Source: Elsinoe ampelina (taxonomy: Eukaryota). From it: a stretch of 64,000 nucleotides of DNA. The notes beneath the pieces were generated by a model that was not told the origin of the DNA, ran no database searches, and was given only the letters and a program-made list of their open reading frames with translations. Of the stretch, positions 6,701 to 44,531 are shown piece after piece (the stretch's first letter is position 1; each line of letters opens with the position of its first letter). A program made the position numbers and the translations under genes. The DNA is taken from NCBI GenBank assembly GCA_010093995.1, contig ML992526.1, positions 1 to 64,000 of the forward strand. Reading direction: 5' to 3'.

Positions 6701-7724
6701 TGGTCTTTACGTCATGGAGTTCTCTCTAGCTGGTCTTTTCCTCATCGCCCGAGACTCCAATGGAGGCTCCGCTGCTATTCCACAAGGCATCATCATGATC
6801 GTCATGATTGCCTTCACCGCACTCTTCCAAGTCCTCTTGAATTCGGCCTTCGCCCCATTGCTACGCTATCTGCCTATCACATTGGAAGATGAAGCCGTCA
6901 TCCGTGACGAAGAGTTCGCCCGAGCCCAAGCCGCTCGATTCCGTGGCCTGACCCAAGAAGAGCCTGACGAACGCGACGGCGACGATATAGAAGACCAGCT
7001 CGCAAAGCGTGAGCGTCAAGAAGAAGAAGCCGATAGATTCGCCGAAGAGCAAGAACGTGAACAAATCCGGGAGAAACGCGCGAGCCGTGGCGACAGCAGA
7101 AGCACCTCCCGCCACCTCCGCAACGGAAGTCACAACCGCCACTCCTCCATGCAAACCAAACCCACCGGCCACTCCAGCTGGAAAGACCGCGCCACCACCG
7201 CCGCCCGCACCCCGACCGACGCCCTCCGCCGCTTCACCCAACCCCGCGGCCGCAACACCGCCCCAACCGCTCCCGCCACCGCCGCAAAGGAGACTACCAA
7301 CGGCTTCTCCGTCGCCCCCGCCTCGGCCCGCGAGCAGCGCCACCAACGTGACGTCGAAGCCCAACAAGTAGCAGGCGACGTCCTCTTCTCAGGCTTCAGC
7401 GACGAACTCGAAGACCTGACTCCCGAAGAGAGGGATTCCCTCGTGCGGTACGCCTTCCAGCACCAAGCACTTCGCGCACGTAGGCCGGTGGTGTGGATCC
7501 CGCGCGACCCGTTGGGGGTGAGCGACGATGAGATTGCGAGGAGTAAGCTGATGTCGACTGTGGGGAGGGGGGATGGCGAGGGCGAAGGGGAGAAGGAAGG
7601 CGAGGGGGAGACGACGACGTATATCTGGATGAGTAATGATGGGACGGGGTTGGATGCGAAGAACAGGGTGGTATTCAGGAAGAGCCCACCGGATTTTGCG
7701 AGTGTGGATTTGATTCAGTTGTAG
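3723..7724 (+). CDS. OSCA/TMEM63 (CSC1/RSN1/PHM7, DUF221) calcium-permeable mechanosensitive channel, 1333 aa
   Basis: Motifs RIYRPKTYL, GLDAYYFLRYL, SAFIQF, PNDVIWSN, DTGGLLFP and the C-terminal VWIPRDPLGVS extension; multiple transmembrane segments; single exon. Confidence 0.93.
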   Translation: MADVPAATAAPGEGIGGFLDSGSGRATQSEQQTVGTLLASIATAAASFGIQFLVFYILRWRLTRIYRPKTYLVPERQRIPAPPSGPWQWIKPLFTMPNSTIINKCGLDAYYFLRYLRMLLKIFIPMAIIILPILLPINRYSGSQDDRAEGTNELGFPNVSPPNSIRLWAHLVLAVMVICWVCYVVYDELRGYIRIRQAYLTSPQHRIRASATTVLVSGIPRKWLTLEALSGLYDVFPGGIRNIWINRDFDELLEKVQLRDKTARQLEDAETVLIKMCVKKHRQEEAKKAKEEGRALSRKQKKAKREQDNQQAENMAQGKGKSSGDPHQTPHNVHEAADDYEHGGHESDSSDSTSVDQPALDLKNPLKLVGHGLGALTHGIASIGQKSKNLVGEVVDDVNHGVKTVNNVVDSANTGGGFVADDSAYEQPSRNKYRQENFAPPGRVATQPGVRVVQDSGRGNHSHNQHQTHHRQNTSVDATPPSATSTAVTSSGARISNAEPQSFEQLRPTEQQAEQRPTGAKGMKSKVKAYKNRSALPFPSPNPQAIEAPEYPLEDLGAGQQNGHKHEDRVAKSKWAEAWSRTQFWKKKSTEEEPAVEYPKAFVDEYAEDQDGEPEWKKYIEAKDRQTMRLPVVPWMFSLPLIGEKVDRIYHLRKELARLNAEIEADQSDEGIERTPLMNSAFIQFNHQIAAHMACQSVSHHIPQHMAPRLIEISPNDVIWSNMSIKWWERYIRTGLVVAACTGLIILFAIPVGFTGLLSQVNALAATYPWLAWLADLPTVVISIIQGILPPVLLAALLAIVPIIFRFLVQMMGVATTNDKELGVQKFYFTFLFFQVFLVVTLSAGLTRTLTDLASDTIGVLRKIATDLPKSSNYFYSYMAVQALGQSAGALLQVGTLIFWFILGPILDSTARQKWARQTNIQSIQWGSYFPFFTLIATIGIIFSIISPLILIFNLVTFSLFLLVQRYNVLYVYLFRSDTGGLLFPNAVNQLYTGLYVMEFSLAGLFLIARDSNGGSAAIPQGIIMIVMIAFTALFQVLLNSAFAPLLRYLPITLEDEAVIRDEEFARAQAARFRGLTQEEPDERDGDDIEDQLAKRERQEEEADRFAEEQEREQIREKRASRGDSRSTSRHLRNGSHNRHSSMQTKPTGHSSWKDRATTAARTPTDALRRFTQPRGRNTAPTAPATAAKETTNGFSVAPASAREQRHQRDVEAQQVAGDVLFSGFSDELEDLTPEERDSLVRYAFQHQALRARRPVVWIPRDPLGVSDDEIARSKLMSTVGRGDGEGEGEKEGEGETTTYIWMSNDGTGLDAKNRVVFRKSPPDFASVDLIQL

Positions 7725-17193: not shown

Positions 17194-18837
17194 TCACATT
17201 TTATCAAACACTTTCGTGCCTGCAATACCTTTCTCCGTGCCAGGTCTCTCCTTGGCTTGGAAGTCAGTTGTGACCACTTCCCTGTCATCGCCCGCAAGTA
17301 GCCCACTGATTTGGCCGACCCATTGCTTACCTCCATCGGGAGCCTTGGTCCGCTTGACTTCAACTTCTTCGCACCTATACCTCGAACCCTCGGCCAGGAC
17401 ATTCCTCCTGTGCCACGCACCAACGAAAACCCCGTCTGGATCTGATTCGTCTCTCACTTTTCTCCATTCCTGCAGTTCAGACCCGAATGTCTCCTCCAGA
17501 TATGGCCTTGCCGAGTCATCGGTAAAGTTCTTCGCCCAATGAGGATGGCCGCCATACTGACGCATCAACCACTCGAAAGCTTCGTAATACCTCGCTCTGC
17601 ACGGCGGATCCTGCAGATAGGGTCTGTAAAGCGTAGCGTTGAGGTAGAGAGTCGGCTCCGTCTTGCAGGTTCCGTCGAGATATGGCCGGACGTTGATCTT
17701 TCTTGTGTCGCTTACCCGAACTTCGATCGGAGCGTGTACCCAGAGCCCTTTTGATGAGAATGGAATGCGATGTTCCTCGAACGGGGCGTGATTGATCCAT
17801 GCTGAGAGGCGGGAGATGATCTCGGGACCTTTGGACAGTGGGACAGCCCATTCGTTGACGAACTGTGAATAGAGACAATTCATCAACAGTCCATACTGCA
17901 TCGACTCGACAGCGTTGGTCGAGTTGCCTGTCTTGAAGCCGTATTGCATACCGAAGACGAACCACTCAATTGCGGGGAGAATACGAGGGAATATGTTGCT
18001 TATGCGCAGTAGGGTGTGGTAGGTGTGAAACCCAACAGATCCGCCATAGAATGACCACGGCGCAGGCCGAGCGGGAGCCTCTGTTTTGTCCGCGGCCCAG
18101 ACGACGCATCGCTTGAGGTAGGGTAGCCACCAAACGCGAATGAACTCATTCGAGGTCCACAGAGAGCTGTCCCAGGTATCAAGAACATGCGAGAGTGGCT
18201 GAAGAGTTTGGGTCCATTCAAGGTTGGTCGCCGGACAGAACTGATAGGTTACCTCGACGATGATTCCAAGTGCGCCTAAAGATAGAAGACCTGCACGGAA
18301 GAGCTCCACGTTCGTCGTGACCGAGCACGTCTGAAGGCTGCCATCTCCAAGAACAATCTTGAAGGAAAGCACCTTGTCGGCAATCGTTCCATGTCGGAGC
18401 GTGCTGCCATGCGTACCAGTACTGATAGCGCCTGCAAACGACTGGTCGACGATGCTGCCAAGGTTCGGAATGGTCATGCCCCGAGCATTTGCCTCTTCGT
18501 TGAGCTTCCAGAGACGAATTCCAGCTTGGACTGTCATGATGTTCTTCTCCTTGTTGACGTCCAGCACCGCGTTCAGCTTGTCGAGATTGACAATCCATGA
18601 GCTGGTCAAGGTCAGGTCGGAGGGCGAGTGACCACATCCTACAGTGACGATTCTGCGCCTACACCGCCGGGCGACCTGGATGAGCTTCTGAACTTCGGTG
18701 ATTGTCTCTGGTTGGAGGTATAGTTCTGGGCGGGAATGAAATGTCTTTGCCCATGTTGAATGTACATGGCTTGTGCTAGATCGGAATGGTACATCTGGCT
18801 GGAAGTCGGCGAGTTCCTGCTTGATGAGAGGATCCAT
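17194..18837 (-). CDS. ALO1: D-arabinono-1,4-lactone oxidase (FAD-linked sugar-1,4-lactone oxidase), 547 aa
   Basis: VGCGHSPSDL covalent-FAD motif, LGSIVDQSFAGAISTGTHGS, PIEVRVS and HPHWAKN. Confidence 0.92.
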   Translation of the reverse strand: MDPLIKQELADFQPDVPFRSSTSHVHSTWAKTFHSRPELYLQPETITEVQKLIQVARRCRRRIVTVGCGHSPSDLTLTSSWIVNLDKLNAVLDVNKEKNIMTVQAGIRLWKLNEEANARGMTIPNLGSIVDQSFAGAISTGTHGSTLRHGTIADKVLSFKIVLGDGSLQTCSVTTNVELFRAGLLSLGALGIIVEVTYQFCPATNLEWTQTLQPLSHVLDTWDSSLWTSNEFIRVWWLPYLKRCVVWAADKTEAPARPAPWSFYGGSVGFHTYHTLLRISNIFPRILPAIEWFVFGMQYGFKTGNSTNAVESMQYGLLMNCLYSQFVNEWAVPLSKGPEIISRLSAWINHAPFEEHRIPFSSKGLWVHAPIEVRVSDTRKINVRPYLDGTCKTEPTLYLNATLYRPYLQDPPCRARYYEAFEWLMRQYGGHPHWAKNFTDDSARPYLEETFGSELQEWRKVRDESDPDGVFVGAWHRRNVLAEGSRYRCEEVEVKRTKAPDGGKQWVGQISGLLAGDDREVVTTDFQAKERPGTEKGIAGTKVFDKM

Positions 18838-19407
18838 GGCGGTGGAGAGGAGAGGAAGAAGAAGCGATGTGTCCCAGGGATGAGAGATTATGGTCGAATC
18901 TTGGAGTCAGACTCAACCGCAACGAGTCAGTAACGACATATCGATGTTTGCCGACTGGTCTATCAGATGCGTTGTAGATGGATGGTGTTGATGACAAAGG
19001 TCACATCCCCGCCATAACTTTTCTCACTTGGTGACGTGAACGACTTTTTGCTTCACATGTCGACGACAACTGGGCTTTTGAGAATCACTGCAACAATCGC
19101 TGTCTCCTCAGATATCTCCACATTACACAGGTGAATTCGCAAACACACAGATCACGTCTAGCTGCTTGCTGTCGTACGACATGAATTAGGCCTGAGAAGC
19201 AAGACTTCGGCAAACGTGACCAATCAGCGCAGGCGGTCCGGAATCACAGCTTCATTTCCGTCATTCATTATCTTTCCTTCCTGTGTGGCACACACGGTCG
19301 CTGCAAGACTTCTGCTTCAATCGTACTCCAGGACAATCAGGTTCTCACGTGTCATCAGCGTGCTTCAGTCGATGAAGCGGCAGTAGCGATCGGATTGGCA
19401 GTGGATC

Positions 19408-20022
19408 ATGCTCAAAACAGCACTCATATCATCGACGTTCACGCGCTGCGTAACGCGCCGTACGCAGACGGTCCTTCGATCTCAGTATCACTATGCGGTA
19501 GATGCCAAATTCGTATTCACGGGTGCTCGCGGCGAGACATCGACAGAGGGGTTCAAGGCGTGGTTGGGCACGGAGACGTCTACCTGCGTTCTCCTTCCTG
19601 GTCGAATTGGCAAGGCATTCCAAAAAGGCATCATTGCTTCAGCAGGCGCTGCGATCAGGTCGGCGCCAGATCGTCTGCCATTGATCTTCGATCACGATAC
19701 CTGCACTTTCGTTAGTCGTGAGTCGTCGGGGCTCTACTGTCGATACTTGTGCTGATGGGACCGCAGCGAGCACGCCGCTACCTCGGATTATCCTGCCTGT
19801 GAATTTGCCGAGACAGACAGACTCGCCGCACACGCCGTCGACACTCTTCATCTACGATGTTGGCGACATGATCACATTCGACGGCACAGAGGATGGTGAG
19901 TCAAGACCGAGGACTTGCACAGGATGGAACACTGATTGAATGCCACAGCCGAATTTGCAGCGCACTCTCAAGACTCTGCAAAAGAGCTTCGCCCAGTATT
20001 GGAGAAACTGAAGGACATGTGA
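19408..20022 (+). CDS. Hypothetical 170-aa protein, 3 exons; presequence-like N-terminus and Phd-like C-terminal helix; candidate Doc partner
   Basis: Introns 19718-19766 (GTGAGT..GCTGAT..CAG) and 19896-19948 (GTGAGT..CTGAT..CAG) give exons of 310+129+74 = 513 nt, open to TGA at 20020-20022. Confidence 0.72.
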
Positions 20023-20090
20023 TTCGATTACTTGGCTGCATCTCATGAAGCTTCTCACATGGCACCTTCCCACCTCTGTCGAACCCAAGG

Positions 20091-20666
20091 CTAATACTCC
20101 TTTGCTTCTGCTCGAAGGCGCTCAATCTCTTTAGACACACTCTGCACTGGTCTCGCGATTGACTCGTAGCATTGAGCAAGCTGCTCTGTCGTCCATTCGT
20201 TGTTGACAACGGCCAGGTGCGCCTTGCTAAGAATGGTATTGGTGCGTTCGTCTTGGAATGGCACCTGCTGGAGGGCATAGCCGTTGATCTTCAGGAAGGT
20301 GTCGGCGACCAACATGGCTGCCCTCTTATTTCCATCCTGGAAAGCATGATTCTTCGCCACTTTTTCCGAGAGATTGGCTGCGAGGCGAAAAACATTCTGC
20401 TCTTGGGTGTAGTGCTTGATATTGATCGGAGAGTTCATGGCAGACTCGAGCAGGTCTGGCTGGACGAGAGCCGCCTCGGTGAGATGGTTATGCAGGAGTC
20501 TTTGTACAAGCTCGACTGTAAGAAAGCGAAAGGTCTTGAGGGGCGTGGCAGCCATTGTCCGCTTGGTTTTGGGGATTGTCTGTAGTTGTAAACTGGGTAT
20601 CAAGTTTTGAGGTACTCTCTCAGTGAATTTCTGCTGTCTGAAGGTGCAGAATGCTGGCCTCGACAT
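20091..20666 (-). CDS. Fic/Doc-family (death-on-curing type) protein, copy 1; probable main start at 20555 (154 aa), in-frame upstream ATG at 20666
   Basis: LLESAMNSP and NHAFQDGNKRAA (motif at 20322-20348), then FLKING; intronless. Confidence 0.88.
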   Translation of the reverse strand: MSRPAFCTFRQQKFTERVPQNLIPSLQLQTIPKTKRTMAATPLKTFRFLTVELVQRLLHNHLTEAALVQPDLLESAMNSPINIKHYTQEQNVFRLAANLSEKVAKNHAFQDGNKRAAMLVADTFLKINGYALQQVPFQDERTNTILSKAHLAVVNNEWTTEQLAQCYESIARPVQSVSKEIERLRAEAKEY

Positions 20667-20943: not shown

Positions 20944-21345
20944 TCACTTGGAGGCGATCTCTTCGTAGTACTTTCCCAGCTCCTCTCCAGTCCACTCCCC
21001 GGTGACAACCCTGACCTGAGCATCTGCGAGCTCATCTTCTGCCCGTTCATTGCTCACACGTAGCCTCTTTCCGTGCAACCTGAGGAAGACATCCGCAGCA
21101 AAGAGCGCAGTCCTCTTGTTCCCATCTTGAAACGGATGATTGCGCGCCAACTTCTCCGCAAGATGCGATGCAAGCTGGTAGTGGTTCTCCTCGCCCGTGT
21201 AATGAGATAAATTCTCGGGTGACTCGCACGCAGAAGACAGCATCGCTGGCTGCGAGAGCGGAGTCGAGAAACCCATTAGTAGTTTATGCAGGATGTGGAC
21301 CTGATTGGGCCTCAAAAACCGGAACGGTGAACAAGGAGTCGACAT
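20944..21345 (-). CDS. Fic/Doc-family protein, copy 2, 133 aa
   Basis: MLSSACESP and NHPFQDGNKRTA (motif at 21112-21138), then FLRLHG; intronless; collinear with copy 1. Confidence 0.88.
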   Translation of the reverse strand: MSTPCSPFRFLRPNQVHILHKLLMGFSTPLSQPAMLSSACESPENLSHYTGEENHYQLASHLAEKLARNHPFQDGNKRTALFAADVFLRLHGKRLRVSNERAEDELADAQVRVVTGEWTGEELGKYYEEIASK

Positions 21346-21716
21346 GCTTGCCCCTCACGATGCGCGCGATTCATCAAGCCATTGTGTAGATTTCGAGATG
21401 CAGCATTGAAGCAAAGGAAAACCCCACAGATTCAGCACGTGACCACATTCCCATTCTGCGCTCCGTGGACCCGCGCGCGCACCGTCTCTCCCTCCTTCCC
21501 ACCTCTTCATCATCAACCCTCATCTGATCTAACCAAATCAAGGAAAAGCCAGCATGCGCGACGTCGATGTCCTCTTCTGCCTTGGCCTTGAAAGCAGGGT
21601 TGGAGGAGGAGGACTGAAGGAATTTGGAGACTGGGCACTTTCAAGGACCACCAAAGAACTTGTCTTCATATTACAACGACTTTTGTATTATGTACATCTG
21701 AAATTCCCACTATTAC

Positions 21717-24700
21717 TCATGCAGAGTTGCGCATGAACCAATCCGTCGAGGGATCAAACTCAAAATTAGTAATGTTGAACTCATTAGGAAGAGCATTGCC
21801 ATCTGCAGCTCCTGCTGCTTGACCAAGATCCATCTGCTCAGTACCAGCCATACCCCCGTTGGCTGGGTCAACGCCAGCTGGTAGCCGTGGTAGGTTGAAG
21901 AAGTCGAAGACGTCAAGGTATTCGAGCTCATTCGGTGCCGGGGTCCGCGCAGGAGTCACCGTGGTAGTACCTCCTGCTGTCCGAATACGATCGAGGGGGA
22001 ATTGGCGTGGCTGACGGCTTATTAGGAAGTCCAGATCGTAGGCAGTGCGCCTCATGTCTGCGAGGATTTTGACAGTGCTGGGAGTTACCCGCTCGCCGTT
22101 GAGATCGCCCCCAGATTGTTCGGATTCGTGATATTCATCGAGAACTCTTGTGAGCAGTACAGCGTAACGCTCAGCTACTTTTTGGTAGGCACCCATCTCT
22201 CGCAGCGTATCGACGAGGGGGTGGATGTTTGGGTTTACCCGGTGATCGATAGTCGAGCCATGCACGAGCAATAGACGGGCAGCCACCCATAGGGAGAATG
22301 CAAAAGGAGGCCCGAGAGTGTTGAGCAGGTTGTTGGATCGCACGAACTTGTTCAGTGCACATATATCCTCTACGGCATTGTGACACCGTTGCGATGCCGA
22401 GTATGAAGGTGTGAAAATTGGCGAGCGTGTGGTAGGATATGCAGCAGATGAGTGAAGGCGGATGATGACACTGGTAGGAAGGTCAGCCAGAGAACTACCA
22501 GAACAGGCTCCCTCGTACGGTCGCTAAGATCTTAGCAGCCCCGATACAAGGTCGGATTCAGTAATTACTACCAGATGGTCGCAACGATATCATTTGAGTG
22601 GTTCTGCACATACGAATACGCTGATATATTGACGCAAAACTACCAGACCGACACGATCAAGGCACAGAGAAAACGGGAGTGACTTACGTGTGGTAGGTAA
22701 TGTGGAGCATAATCCACATGGTGTTGATGGTTTTGTTGGCCCCCGTAGCAAACATGCGTGACATGTTGCCGTACTCGGAGGGCAAGCTGAACTTCCATCG
22801 ATTCAGACTTCCGTCGAGCTCACGGTATTCCCTTTGCCACTGCTCCACATCGGACAGGGCACCTATATCTACCGGTTTCTTCAAGAACCTATGCACTCTC
22901 GAGAGAATACCGAGAACCTCGATATAGTACGAGAAGGTGCCGAGGTTAGCCGCTTTTGGGTCGGTTTGGTCTGGGTATTCTGAAGTCGAAAACCATCTCG
23001 TTTCAACTGGAGCATTGCGGGCGAATTGGTCTTCTCGGCATGGCAATCGGCGATCGATCTCCTTGTCGTCAAGAGCAAATTCGAAAGCTGTTGCAATGGT
23101 CGCATATCGATCGAGGATATAGATCATCCAAAATAGGCGCCGGCGGCTCTCGTCCTCGATGAAATCCCGCGGTTCTGGTAGTACCATAGCTCGCAACGTG
23201 TAAATAGATGGGTAGAGCGGCGATACTGTCATCGAGTTCGGCTCAACAGCTAGGCCTAGTTGAACGACACTCCTGGTGATTAATGCCAGCATATTCCAGC
23301 CAGGGGGACCATTTGAGAAGCCAATGATATCAAGAGCAAGTATAACCAATGCCTGTAAAGCCTTGACTGAGCTGTTGTCGAGTCCGTACAGGAGAACCTT
23401 CTGTTTTGATTTGTTGTAGTATCTCTCTCGAGCTTGCTGCTCCAGTCGTGGGTCCGTCGAGAATTTCAGCGTCGTGGCAACAAGGGCATGAAGCAGAATC
23501 CTGTCCGCTTCATCAAGACTATTCGAGCCAAACAGAGAGTCTAGAGTCGCCCGTCGATGTAATATGGGGCACCACGTATTGATGTGCTTGAAGTATAGGT
23601 CCACGAGTGCATAGAGTAAGTCATACGGCGGTAGGTCAGCGTCTTGTGCCACAGTCATGGCTGTATCTGTAGAGCTGCTTGTGGTACCTGGTATATTGAG
23701 GCTGGCGGATTCAAGGTGCGGATTGGTCGGTTCGAACATGTTTGTGCCGGTCGGTGTGGACTGCATCCGTGCTACCGGAGTCTGTCCCTGTGTGAGGCCT
23801 TGAGGTGGCGGCATGCCATTGCTGTTTCTGTGGGCGCCAAACCCTGGCTGCATCTGGCGCTCGTGAGGACTGTTGTATGATACTGGGGCCCGTTGCATGT
23901 AGTATGAGTCGGTATGACTTCGGGCGTTCGATATGACTGAAGCTGGCGAAGGGGTGTTGTGGGCTGCTTGAGGTTGCATTTGTGGAGGAGCAGTCGGTTG
24001 TTGAACTCCTGGTAGTACATTTGCGAGCTGTTGGAGGAGCTGCTGCTGGGTCTGAAGGACACCTTCAAGCTTGTCTACACGTTGTCAATTGCAAGACCCC
24101 TTGTCCGCAGTCCTATGAGGCTTACCTAGTCGTGTCTCCAGCTCTCGTCCATAGCCAGCTCTGTTTCGTTGTCAGAATTTGGGTCCCATCTCTGGCGAAT
24201 TCATTCGAGCTATCTTTCAAGGACGGAAAGCTTGAGCGCTGTCCTCTGACTATCAGACAAGCTAAGGTGATGACCGAGCCGGCTTGACTGACCAACGTGA
24301 CCATCAGACCAGATCCACGTACTGGCCAATGCAGTATTGAAAAGCTGACCAATGCGACGTTGACTACCAGACACGGATGTATGTACCGATGTAGAGAGTT
24401 TGACTTACCGCAGGCCAGGTTTCTTCCGCTCCTTGTATTCACAATTGTGGCCATTTCTTAGACACCACCCTGCATCTCGGGTCAATTCTTGACGGCGACA
24501 GGCCAAGGATCTACATACCACAGGCAGGTTGACCGCGGTCGCATTTCACCTGTTGCACGTGCTACGTCAGTACAGTCTCGGTGCGGCTTGCAGGATGATA
24601 CAAGCTACTACCGGGTGGACGAGGGCTCACCTTTCTTTGCTTGCAGAGCTCGCATGATACAGAAAGAGGTCGCTTTGCACGCTTCCTCTTGCGCGTATCC

Positions 24701-44071: not shown

Positions 44072-44531
44072 GTTGATGTCGGGTATGTCGAATGATGCTG
44101 CTGCGGTATTACAGCTAAGGATACACTGGTCAGTACACAGAATGTCAACTGTCAAAGAAAAGGAGCTTTGACAAAGCTGCGACAATATCTTTACCAGCCG
44201 TGATCCTTGCCCAGCCGCACGAGACCTACTTTTCGGGACCCAGGTGGAGAGAGGAGATGTGGTCGCGTCGGAAGGCCGAGGAGCAACTCGTTTTTCCGAA
44301 ATCAAACAAGGTTTCAACGGCTGAGGGGAAGCTTGGTCGACGATGCAGGGTCTCGCCCCATCTGGCTAGGCAATTTACAGGCAATCTAGATCTCGAGTGG
44401 TCCGTGTCTTTGCCAGTCTTTTCACCCCATTTTCTGCTGACCCGAGGCCTTTCTGCCCACTTCATTCCGTCCGTCCTCCACCTCTCGCTCGCCCACTTGC
44501 CCTTCAGCACTGGGAAGGCGAGCGTATACCG

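Follow-up and report, generated by a model that had tools for sequence, protein, structure and literature searches.

The window analysed here, to which all positions refer, is the whole stretch of 64,000 nucleotides from Elsinoe ampelina (GenBank assembly GCA_010093995.1, contig ML992526.1, positions 1 to 64,000 of the forward strand). It contains a small gene of three exons, hereafter the partner gene, lying beside two genes of the Doc type on the opposite strand (Table 1). The partner gene and Doc1 were convergent, with 68 nt between their stop codons (20023-20090). A preliminary description of this DNA had noticed that the C-terminus of the spliced partner protein resembled the Doc-neutralising helix of the antitoxin Phd, and had proposed that the production of such a helix could be switched by splicing. 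The oxidase and Fungal_trans genes listed in Table 1 were ordinary fungal genes, neither of which was kept beside the Doc/partner pair in other lineages.

Table 1. Genes, exons and introns at the Doc/partner locus of the Elsinoe ampelina window
Feature	Position	Strand	Remarks
D-arabinono-1,4-lactone oxidase gene	17197-18906	-	With FAD-binding domain
Partner exon 1	19408-19717	+	Residues 1-103, then base 1 of codon 104; the 103 residues do not differ from those of P0006; family profile 89 bits
Partner intron 1	19718-19766	+	49 nt, GT..AG; joint 19717>19767 in contigs of 4/4 runs
Partner exon 2	19767-19895	+	End ...ITFDGTED and G of the Ala147 codon; family profile 55.7 bits
Partner intron 2	19896-19948	+	53 nt, GTGAGT...CAG, phase 1; skipped in contigs of 4/4 runs
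Partner exon 3 (mini-exon)	19949-20022	+	Rest of the C-terminal helix, (A)EFAAHSQDSAKELRPVLEKLKDM, and stop TGA 20020-20022; family profile positions 146-169, 25.1 bits
Doc1	20091-20555	-	Doc family, 154 aa, motif HAFQDGNKR; Pfam Fic 46.8 bits; TIGR01550 DOC_P1 55.5 bits
Doc2	20944-21345	-	Doc family, 133 aa, motif HPFQDGNKR; Pfam Fic 50.5 bits; TIGR01550 DOC_P1 45.4 bits
Fungal_trans transcription factor gene	22687-24084	-	

Removal of the two introns yielded a protein of 170 aa that agreed letter for letter with P0006, deposited from Elsinoe ampelina as 'hypothetical protein BDZ85DRAFT_63331' and ending in ...GTEDAEFAAHSQDSAKELRPVLEKLKDM. A protein of E. batatas (P0007) was 81% identical to it. 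Transcript contigs from all four runs considered (three studies) carried both the first joint and the second, the latter at 19894/5>19948/9; these runs were not on record as RNA, and the contigs were nevertheless spliced. The gene model and C-terminal sequence of the preliminary description were therefore right, and intron 2 was spliced as it had predicted. It had also correctly described how the word DAEFA is created over the second junction, where the codons read GAT G/CC GAA TTT GCA (the slash marks the junction), and how read-through would abolish the helix: with intron 2 retained, translation would run to ...GTEDGESRPRTCTGWNTD and stop at the in-frame TGA at 19937-19939 (ORF 19685..19939). 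Among the contigs of the four runs, a set from which rare forms may have been dropped, no intron-retaining contig was listed. It was also observed that the contigs of two runs were unbroken from the partner gene through Doc1 and Doc2, ending at ~21366-21373, just upstream of the Doc2 start. Their continuity across the three genes suggested that the 3' ends of the transcripts probably overlap, the strand not being given by the contigs.

The two neighbouring genes were assigned by curated profile cut-offs, 24 bits for Pfam Fic and 38.65 bits for TIGR01550 DOC_P1, together with the Doc motif HxFx(D/N)(A/G)NKR. Both genes scored above both cut-offs and carried the motif, which placed them in the Doc (death-on-curing) family and bore out the earlier remark that the flagged gene adjoins Doc genes. 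Doc1 and Doc2 are tandem paralogues with 45% identity, and the best solved relative of Doc1 was 9vzc_A (E of 7.1e-5). A C-terminal extension of ~20 aa ending in EY was found in Doc1 and in the Docs of the metagenome loci described below, and was absent from bacterial Docs, Doc2 and the Trichophyton Doc. The Doc of P1 has been reported to act on EF-Tu (PMC9207808).

By exhaustive HMMER search, 59 clusters of proteins related to the partner were obtained at E<=1e-3 and 19 at E<=1e-10. The proteins form a family of ~170 aa that is wide in filamentous ascomycetes. Organism names were carried by 17 of the 20 representatives that were looked up, and all of these were filamentous ascomycetes, of the genera Elsinoe, Zopfia, Phyllosticta, Acrodontium, Massariosphaeria, Pseudovirgaria, Blastomyces, Trichophyton, Microsporum, Aspergillus, Penicillium, Epichloe, Claviceps, Nemania, Cadophora, Cirrosporium and Trizodia. 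When the 58 other representatives were searched against Pfam, no family was matched, apart from the Fic domain in one fused model. Hits to AtaL (P0011) and to Aim19 (in the N-terminal extension of P0027) did not reach the cut-offs and were disregarded.

Across 32 aligned members, the tail was among the best-conserved parts of the protein, with the consensus LDGTxDAxFA.....S...L...L..LKDM, and D146, G143, T144 and L167 were near-invariant. The conserved C-terminal helix comprises 24 residues, starting with D-A-x-F-A, kinked at a Pro/Gly and ending with LKDM. D..F was present in 26/36 representatives with a modelled tail, and Pro/Gly at F+13 in 19/27. Scanning of metagenome contigs with a 10-row sub-alignment gave 16 related loci, in all of which the tail (profile positions 146-169) was a separate segment downstream of exon 2. 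Both the consensus and the related loci that were inspected thus established that the tail is conserved among homologues; DAEFA itself was found in 4 of 10 distinct loci. Besides the window, the intron was inspected in these ten loci; the other six, being near-identical to L004 or L008, were left out. The donor followed GAT G and the acceptor preceded C throughout, so that the Ala codon was split in phase 1, and read-through of intron 2 ended without the helix in every case.

Some deposited models of the family end before the helix. Four of the 32 aligned database models stop at ...GTxDG; these look like models with a missed last exon, not isoforms. In Blastomyces dermatitidis and B. gilchristii, 144-aa proteins annotated as 'variant' end in ...LDGTFDASRFSP without the helix, which is a matter of annotation only. 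It was noted that the differences between the annotated Blastomyces isoforms P0142, P0144 and P0143 fall precisely on the conserved junction of intron 2: two of them are helix-less, and one has an 8-aa in-frame deletion (AKFTNQLR) there.

The Doc gene was found beside the partner gene well outside Elsinoe. By tblastn, a full convergent Doc homologue with stop codons 170-260 nt apart was located in 11 of the 16 metagenome loci. In L014 and L017 the contig ended inside a convergent Doc gene, and in L002, L015 and L016 the ~10-270 nt left after the family gene were too short to tell. Doc therefore adjoined the family gene in 13/16 loci, that is, in 13/13 with enough downstream sequence. About four lineages can be told apart among the loci (L004-L012; L003, L013 and L017; L011; L014). 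In tblastx comparisons between these lineages and the window, only the ~1.3-kb pair was alike and the 6-kb flanks were not. Three deposited Trichophyton models, 255-271 aa long, join Doc to the partner, other strains having Doc alone (127-136 aa), and a Claviceps arundinis model of 272 aa fuses the partner to Doc. These fused models implied that the two genes are also neighbours in these fungi, on one strand and in either order. One Logan contig (85682 bp) was listed for both the closest Doc1 homologue and the closest partner homologue, which is suggestive only as a sign of linkage. With the 13 loci and the fused models of two further genera, the link to Doc is much stronger than the preliminary description had stated.

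Two irregularities were observed among these Docs. The Doc genes of L003 (~6820-6830) and L013 carry an in-frame stop at the place of a Trp in the other loci (..EEW.. replaced by ..EE and stop), which removes the last 14 codons of the extension. The Doc part of the Claviceps arundinis fusion (P0152) reads HAYQDRNKR, with Arg for the Gly of the motif, and ~35 N-terminal residues are missing; judging by this sequence, it may be a degenerate or mis-modelled copy.

The identity between the window and the loci was 27-30% for the partner and 50-53% for Doc, indicating that the partner diverges faster. Linkage that survives such divergence as well as rearrangement argues for a functional pair. Adjacency across lineages and independent of the flanks, which is a trait of type II toxin-antitoxin systems, was thus found here. 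Another trait of such systems, the co-transcribed autoregulated operon, was not: the genes are convergent in the window and in 13 loci, spliceosomal introns are present, and Pfam gave no DNA-binding domain. Because the two genes are separate eukaryotic transcription units, operon logic is not applicable to them.

The P1 Phd tail had been given correctly in the preliminary description, as was confirmed with NC_005856 (...AALDAEFASLFDTLDSTNKELVNR). In-register identity between the fungal tail and that of P1 Phd was limited to DAEFA. In Phd the word DS follows the Asp by 11 residues and KEL by 15; in the fungal protein these distances are 9 and 12, so that two indels, of two residues and one residue, are needed to align both words. 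Of the shared DAEFA...DS..KEL pattern put forward earlier, the first word was in register and the DS..KEL part was not. The chance of a Phd-tail 5-mer was p ~7e-4 within the last 26 positions of a given protein and ~4e-3 anywhere in a 170-aa protein. Shuffled Phd tails gave 1.8 matches on average in the six-frame window, and the real tail also matched FASLF at 44409 (+), in one reading frame and by chance, which illustrated the weakness of 5-mer matches. For its place, DAEFA is nominally out of the ordinary as a match, although it was picked out post hoc.

Comparisons of whole profiles did not recover a relationship with Phd. A Pfam search with P0006 and P0007 at E up to 10 returned 0 families, PF02604 and PF04014 being among those not matched. 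When the fungal family was compared by hhalign with an alignment of 11 Phd proteins, the probability was 0.14% and the E value 0.43, and the aligned stretch lay outside the tails. The first 8 columns of the fungal-tail profile (DAxFAxxx) picked residue 53 of Phd, with 807/20000 shuffles as good, or 1101/20000 without the two Elsinoe rows; over 18 columns, 6464/20000 shuffles were as good and significance was lost. These results spoke against homology with Phd. The hot spots reported for Salmonella Phd are F56, I59, M60, H63, L67 and L70, of which Phe56, the F of DDxF, is the gatekeeper (PMC9207808). In an alignment based on Phe, F149 corresponds to F56, and L160 (+11) and V163 (+14) to positions 67 and 70, while positions 59, 60 and 63 (F+3, F+4 and F+7) are His, Ser and Ser in the Elsinoe tail. 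Such a likeness appears to be that of a motif together with the periodicity of any amphipathic helix. At the level of sequence, DAEFA would be a motif-level resemblance, convergent or by chance, with homology to Phd unsupported; the caveat given earlier, that the match is short and could be chance, still applies to it.

Another kind of antitoxin was found beside the nearest bacterial relatives of Doc1. Eighty bacterial loci were fetched with the Docs closest to the fungal ones, which showed ~45% identity to Doc1. In 78 of them an ORF ended at the Doc start, and 72/78 of these upstream ORFs had the ending ...LTPYDP(E/D)F plus 23 residues up to ...LAK; they were of the MazE antitoxin type, which terminates in a helix of ~24 residues. 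PF04014 (MazE_antitoxin) was matched by 4/4 tested upstream ORFs, one of which matched 9vzc_B, and D[PA]xF occurred in 28/72 of the MazE-type antitoxins. The 9VZC structure has been described as an E. faecalis Phd-Doc complex with an AbrB-like antitoxin, whose bent C-terminal helix (residues 52-79) enters the concave face of Doc (PMC13034048). By hhalign, the best alignment between the fungal family and the MazE-type Doc antitoxins was tail to tail, with a score of 19.9 and P of 0.0081. This score was reached by 2/300 column permutations, and a reversed decoy scored 20.2 elsewhere in the protein. In an ungapped comparison of the fungal and MazE-type tail profiles, 3588/5000 permutations were as good, which was not significant. 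Because the decoy exceeded the real score and the ungapped control was not significant, homology of the tail to MazE-type Doc antitoxins was regarded as unproven.

With the family alignment, AlphaFold2 predicted one confident domain for the partner, with mean pLDDT of 88.8 and pTM of 0.78. Eight strands were modelled, together with one helix at 65-82 and, at 145-168, the C-terminal helix (pLDDT 94-96). The model suggests that the hydrophobic face of this helix packs on the partner's own sheet, and is not free as it is in Phd. A free, Phd-like tail is at odds with this placement inside the domain. The model was not matched by a solved fold: the best Foldseek E was 0.14 and the best VIA-align Z was 4.0, and the VIA-align rows (roadblock, profilin, protease-like) were too weak for fold assignment. 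The best feature score in the ESM Atlas was 0.78, under the level of chance matches, and searching PDB sequences with the partner gave 0 matches at E up to 10. A complex prediction of Doc1 with partner residues 27-170 scored 0.00, in a run without alignments in which the partner fold itself was uncertain, and so spoke neither for nor against docking. AlphaFold2 of the Trichophyton fusion P0071 placed the partner half at pLDDT <50 (mean 54.7, pTM 0.51), and was hence uninformative.

The N-terminus of the partner was also of interest. Residues 1-28 (window 19408-19491) are basic, with no acidic residue. In 25 family N-termini (first 14-36 residues), 2-6 Lys/Arg were present in 25/25 and no acidic residue in 23/25, and they often ended in R-x-[FLY]-H. 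By composition, these N-termini look like mitochondrial presequences. In the first 30 aa, the fungal Docs examined had 0-2 acidic residues; among five bacterial/phage Docs, four had 3-4 and the fifth had 1. The N-terminal composition of partners and fungal Docs raises the possibility of action in mitochondria. With presequence-like N-termini on the partners and Docs that start directly with the Doc fold, the pair may on the other hand not share a compartment.

Taken together, these observations describe an unnamed 170-aa family that, with the gene of a Doc-type (Fic-fold) kinase, constitutes a cassette held together while its surroundings change. The partner is probably Doc's partner. We lean, if only slightly, towards the reading that Doc and partner are a eukaryotic two-gene module, in which the partner is a cognate, antidote-like inhibitor or regulator of Doc and the helix is a candidate Doc contact. 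The partner would bind and restrain Doc, and would correspond, in a eukaryote and with a new fold, to a type II antitoxin. The C-terminal helix on its own mini-exon would be the leading candidate for the contact, since P1/Salmonella Phd and the E. faecalis AbrB-like antitoxin both use a bent C-terminal helix; this proposal is by analogy. The high pLDDT of the helix inside a confident domain suggests that it packs on that domain, which was counted against a contact role. Of the Doc-neutralising helix first proposed, the splicing, the conserved tail and the Doc link have stood; homology with Phd and a free tail found no support, and neither did a splicing switch in this species.

The partner might instead be tied to Doc without inhibiting it, as a substrate, an adaptor or a co-factor, for example a mitochondrial protein controlled by Doc or one directing Doc to its target, and the helix would then be just part of an alpha/beta fold. 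Linkage says that the genes belong together, not how, and the helix lies within a confident single domain; presequence-like N-termini in 23/25 members are in keeping with such a role as well, and a fold without a solved relative implies no antitoxin fold. Against this, the ORFs directly upstream of the closest bacterial Docs were predominantly MazE-type antitoxins, and the partner, small and with its terminal helix conserved, fits the pattern of antitoxins. Moreover, antitoxins usually evolve faster than their toxins, as the partner does relative to Doc. A role other than inhibition was regarded as doubtful, though to be taken seriously.

The antidote-like reading can be carried further, to a fungal toxin-antidote pair built on a bacterial Doc kinase, with a new-fold antidote of fungal invention that bears a mitochondrial presequence and whose helix, on a separate mini-exon in every member, plugs the Doc groove in the manner of bacterial antitoxin helices. 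The pair would then control translation, perhaps mitochondrial, via a bacterial-type EF-Tu, and the kinase would be released when the helix exon is lost or mis-spliced. In this extended form the proposal is unlikely.

The reading closest to the preliminary description is that the helix is related to Phd, neutralises Doc and is switched off by regulated retention of intron 2, which would release Doc. DAEFA is common to Phd and the family motif is D-A-x-F-A; the intron lies exactly before the helix in 16/16 loci and read-through never gives the helix; and helix-less annotated variants exist in two Blastomyces species, besides the one in-frame deletion model. However, a conserved intron position is nothing unusual in fungal genes, several of the models ending in ...GTxDG look like missed last exons, and the profile tests reject Phd homology. 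A packed domain deprived of its helix would, according to the AlphaFold2 model, more likely be unstable than a regulated form. With the spliced form alone in the contigs of 4/4 runs, even if contigs drop rare forms, and helix-less variants in Blastomyces annotations only, the splicing switch is unsupported in Elsinoe ampelina, and this reading as a whole is very unlikely. That an unrelated gene lies beside Doc and carries DAEFA by chance is scarcely credible: a 5-mer match is weak, as the shuffled tails and FASLF illustrated, and homology to antitoxin families was not demonstrable, but as to adjacency coincidence is already contradicted by the 13/13 loci, in lineages with unrelated flanks, and by the other orientations in Trichophyton and Claviceps.

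Type II toxin-antitoxin pairs count as a feature of prokaryotes and phages. Fic/Doc genes have been reported from 'a few fungi', where they were considered probable transfers (PMC2686095). In full-text literature searches, no description of a conserved gene partnering fungal Doc was found, and a conserved fungal cassette of Doc and a new partner family appears undescribed. Doc was kept with one specific neighbour over several ascomycete classes and in three orientations. Such kept pairing suggests that the toxin needed a dedicated controller after entering eukaryotes, which fungi built from a new protein. The analysis proposes a function for 'hypothetical proteins' of plant pathogens, human pathogens and saprobes, and two small genes offer a direct and cheap co-expression test of native eukaryotic toxin-antidote logic.

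Among fungi, the toxin-antidote elements wtf and Spok combine a linked poison and antidote and act in meiotic drive. The Doc/partner pair would resemble them in the tight linkage of poison and antidote functions, which are passed on together as a single unit of a fungal genome; its proteins are unrelated to theirs, and it gives no sign of drive, polymorphism or killing. Phd-Doc of P1 and Salmonella likewise pairs a Doc-family gene with a small neighbouring gene, and its partner ends in a helix of ~22-24 residues that starts with D-A-E-F-A in P1, compared with D-A-x-F-A in the fungal family. In contrast to Phd, the fungal partner has 170 aa, an intron-bearing gene and an unrelated alpha/beta domain, and the later hot-spot positions of Phd are unmatched in its tail. 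Its helix is modelled within a folded domain, whereas the Phd tail is disordered, and the fungal genes are convergent eukaryotic units, whereas Phd-Doc is an operon with the antitoxin first. Relative to the AbrB/MazE-type antitoxins of Doc, the fungal partner is twice as long, lacks a PF04014 match and has no apparent DNA-binding role. The Docs of these systems are, however, the closest solved and bacterial relatives of Doc1, and in the antitoxins paired with them the N-terminal part is beta-rich and ...DP(E/D)F comes next, with a 23-residue helix running to the C-terminus. A terminal helix of comparable length, tending to begin with D-[AP]-x-F, is thus common to all three kinds of Doc partner, a likeness described here with no claim of homology.
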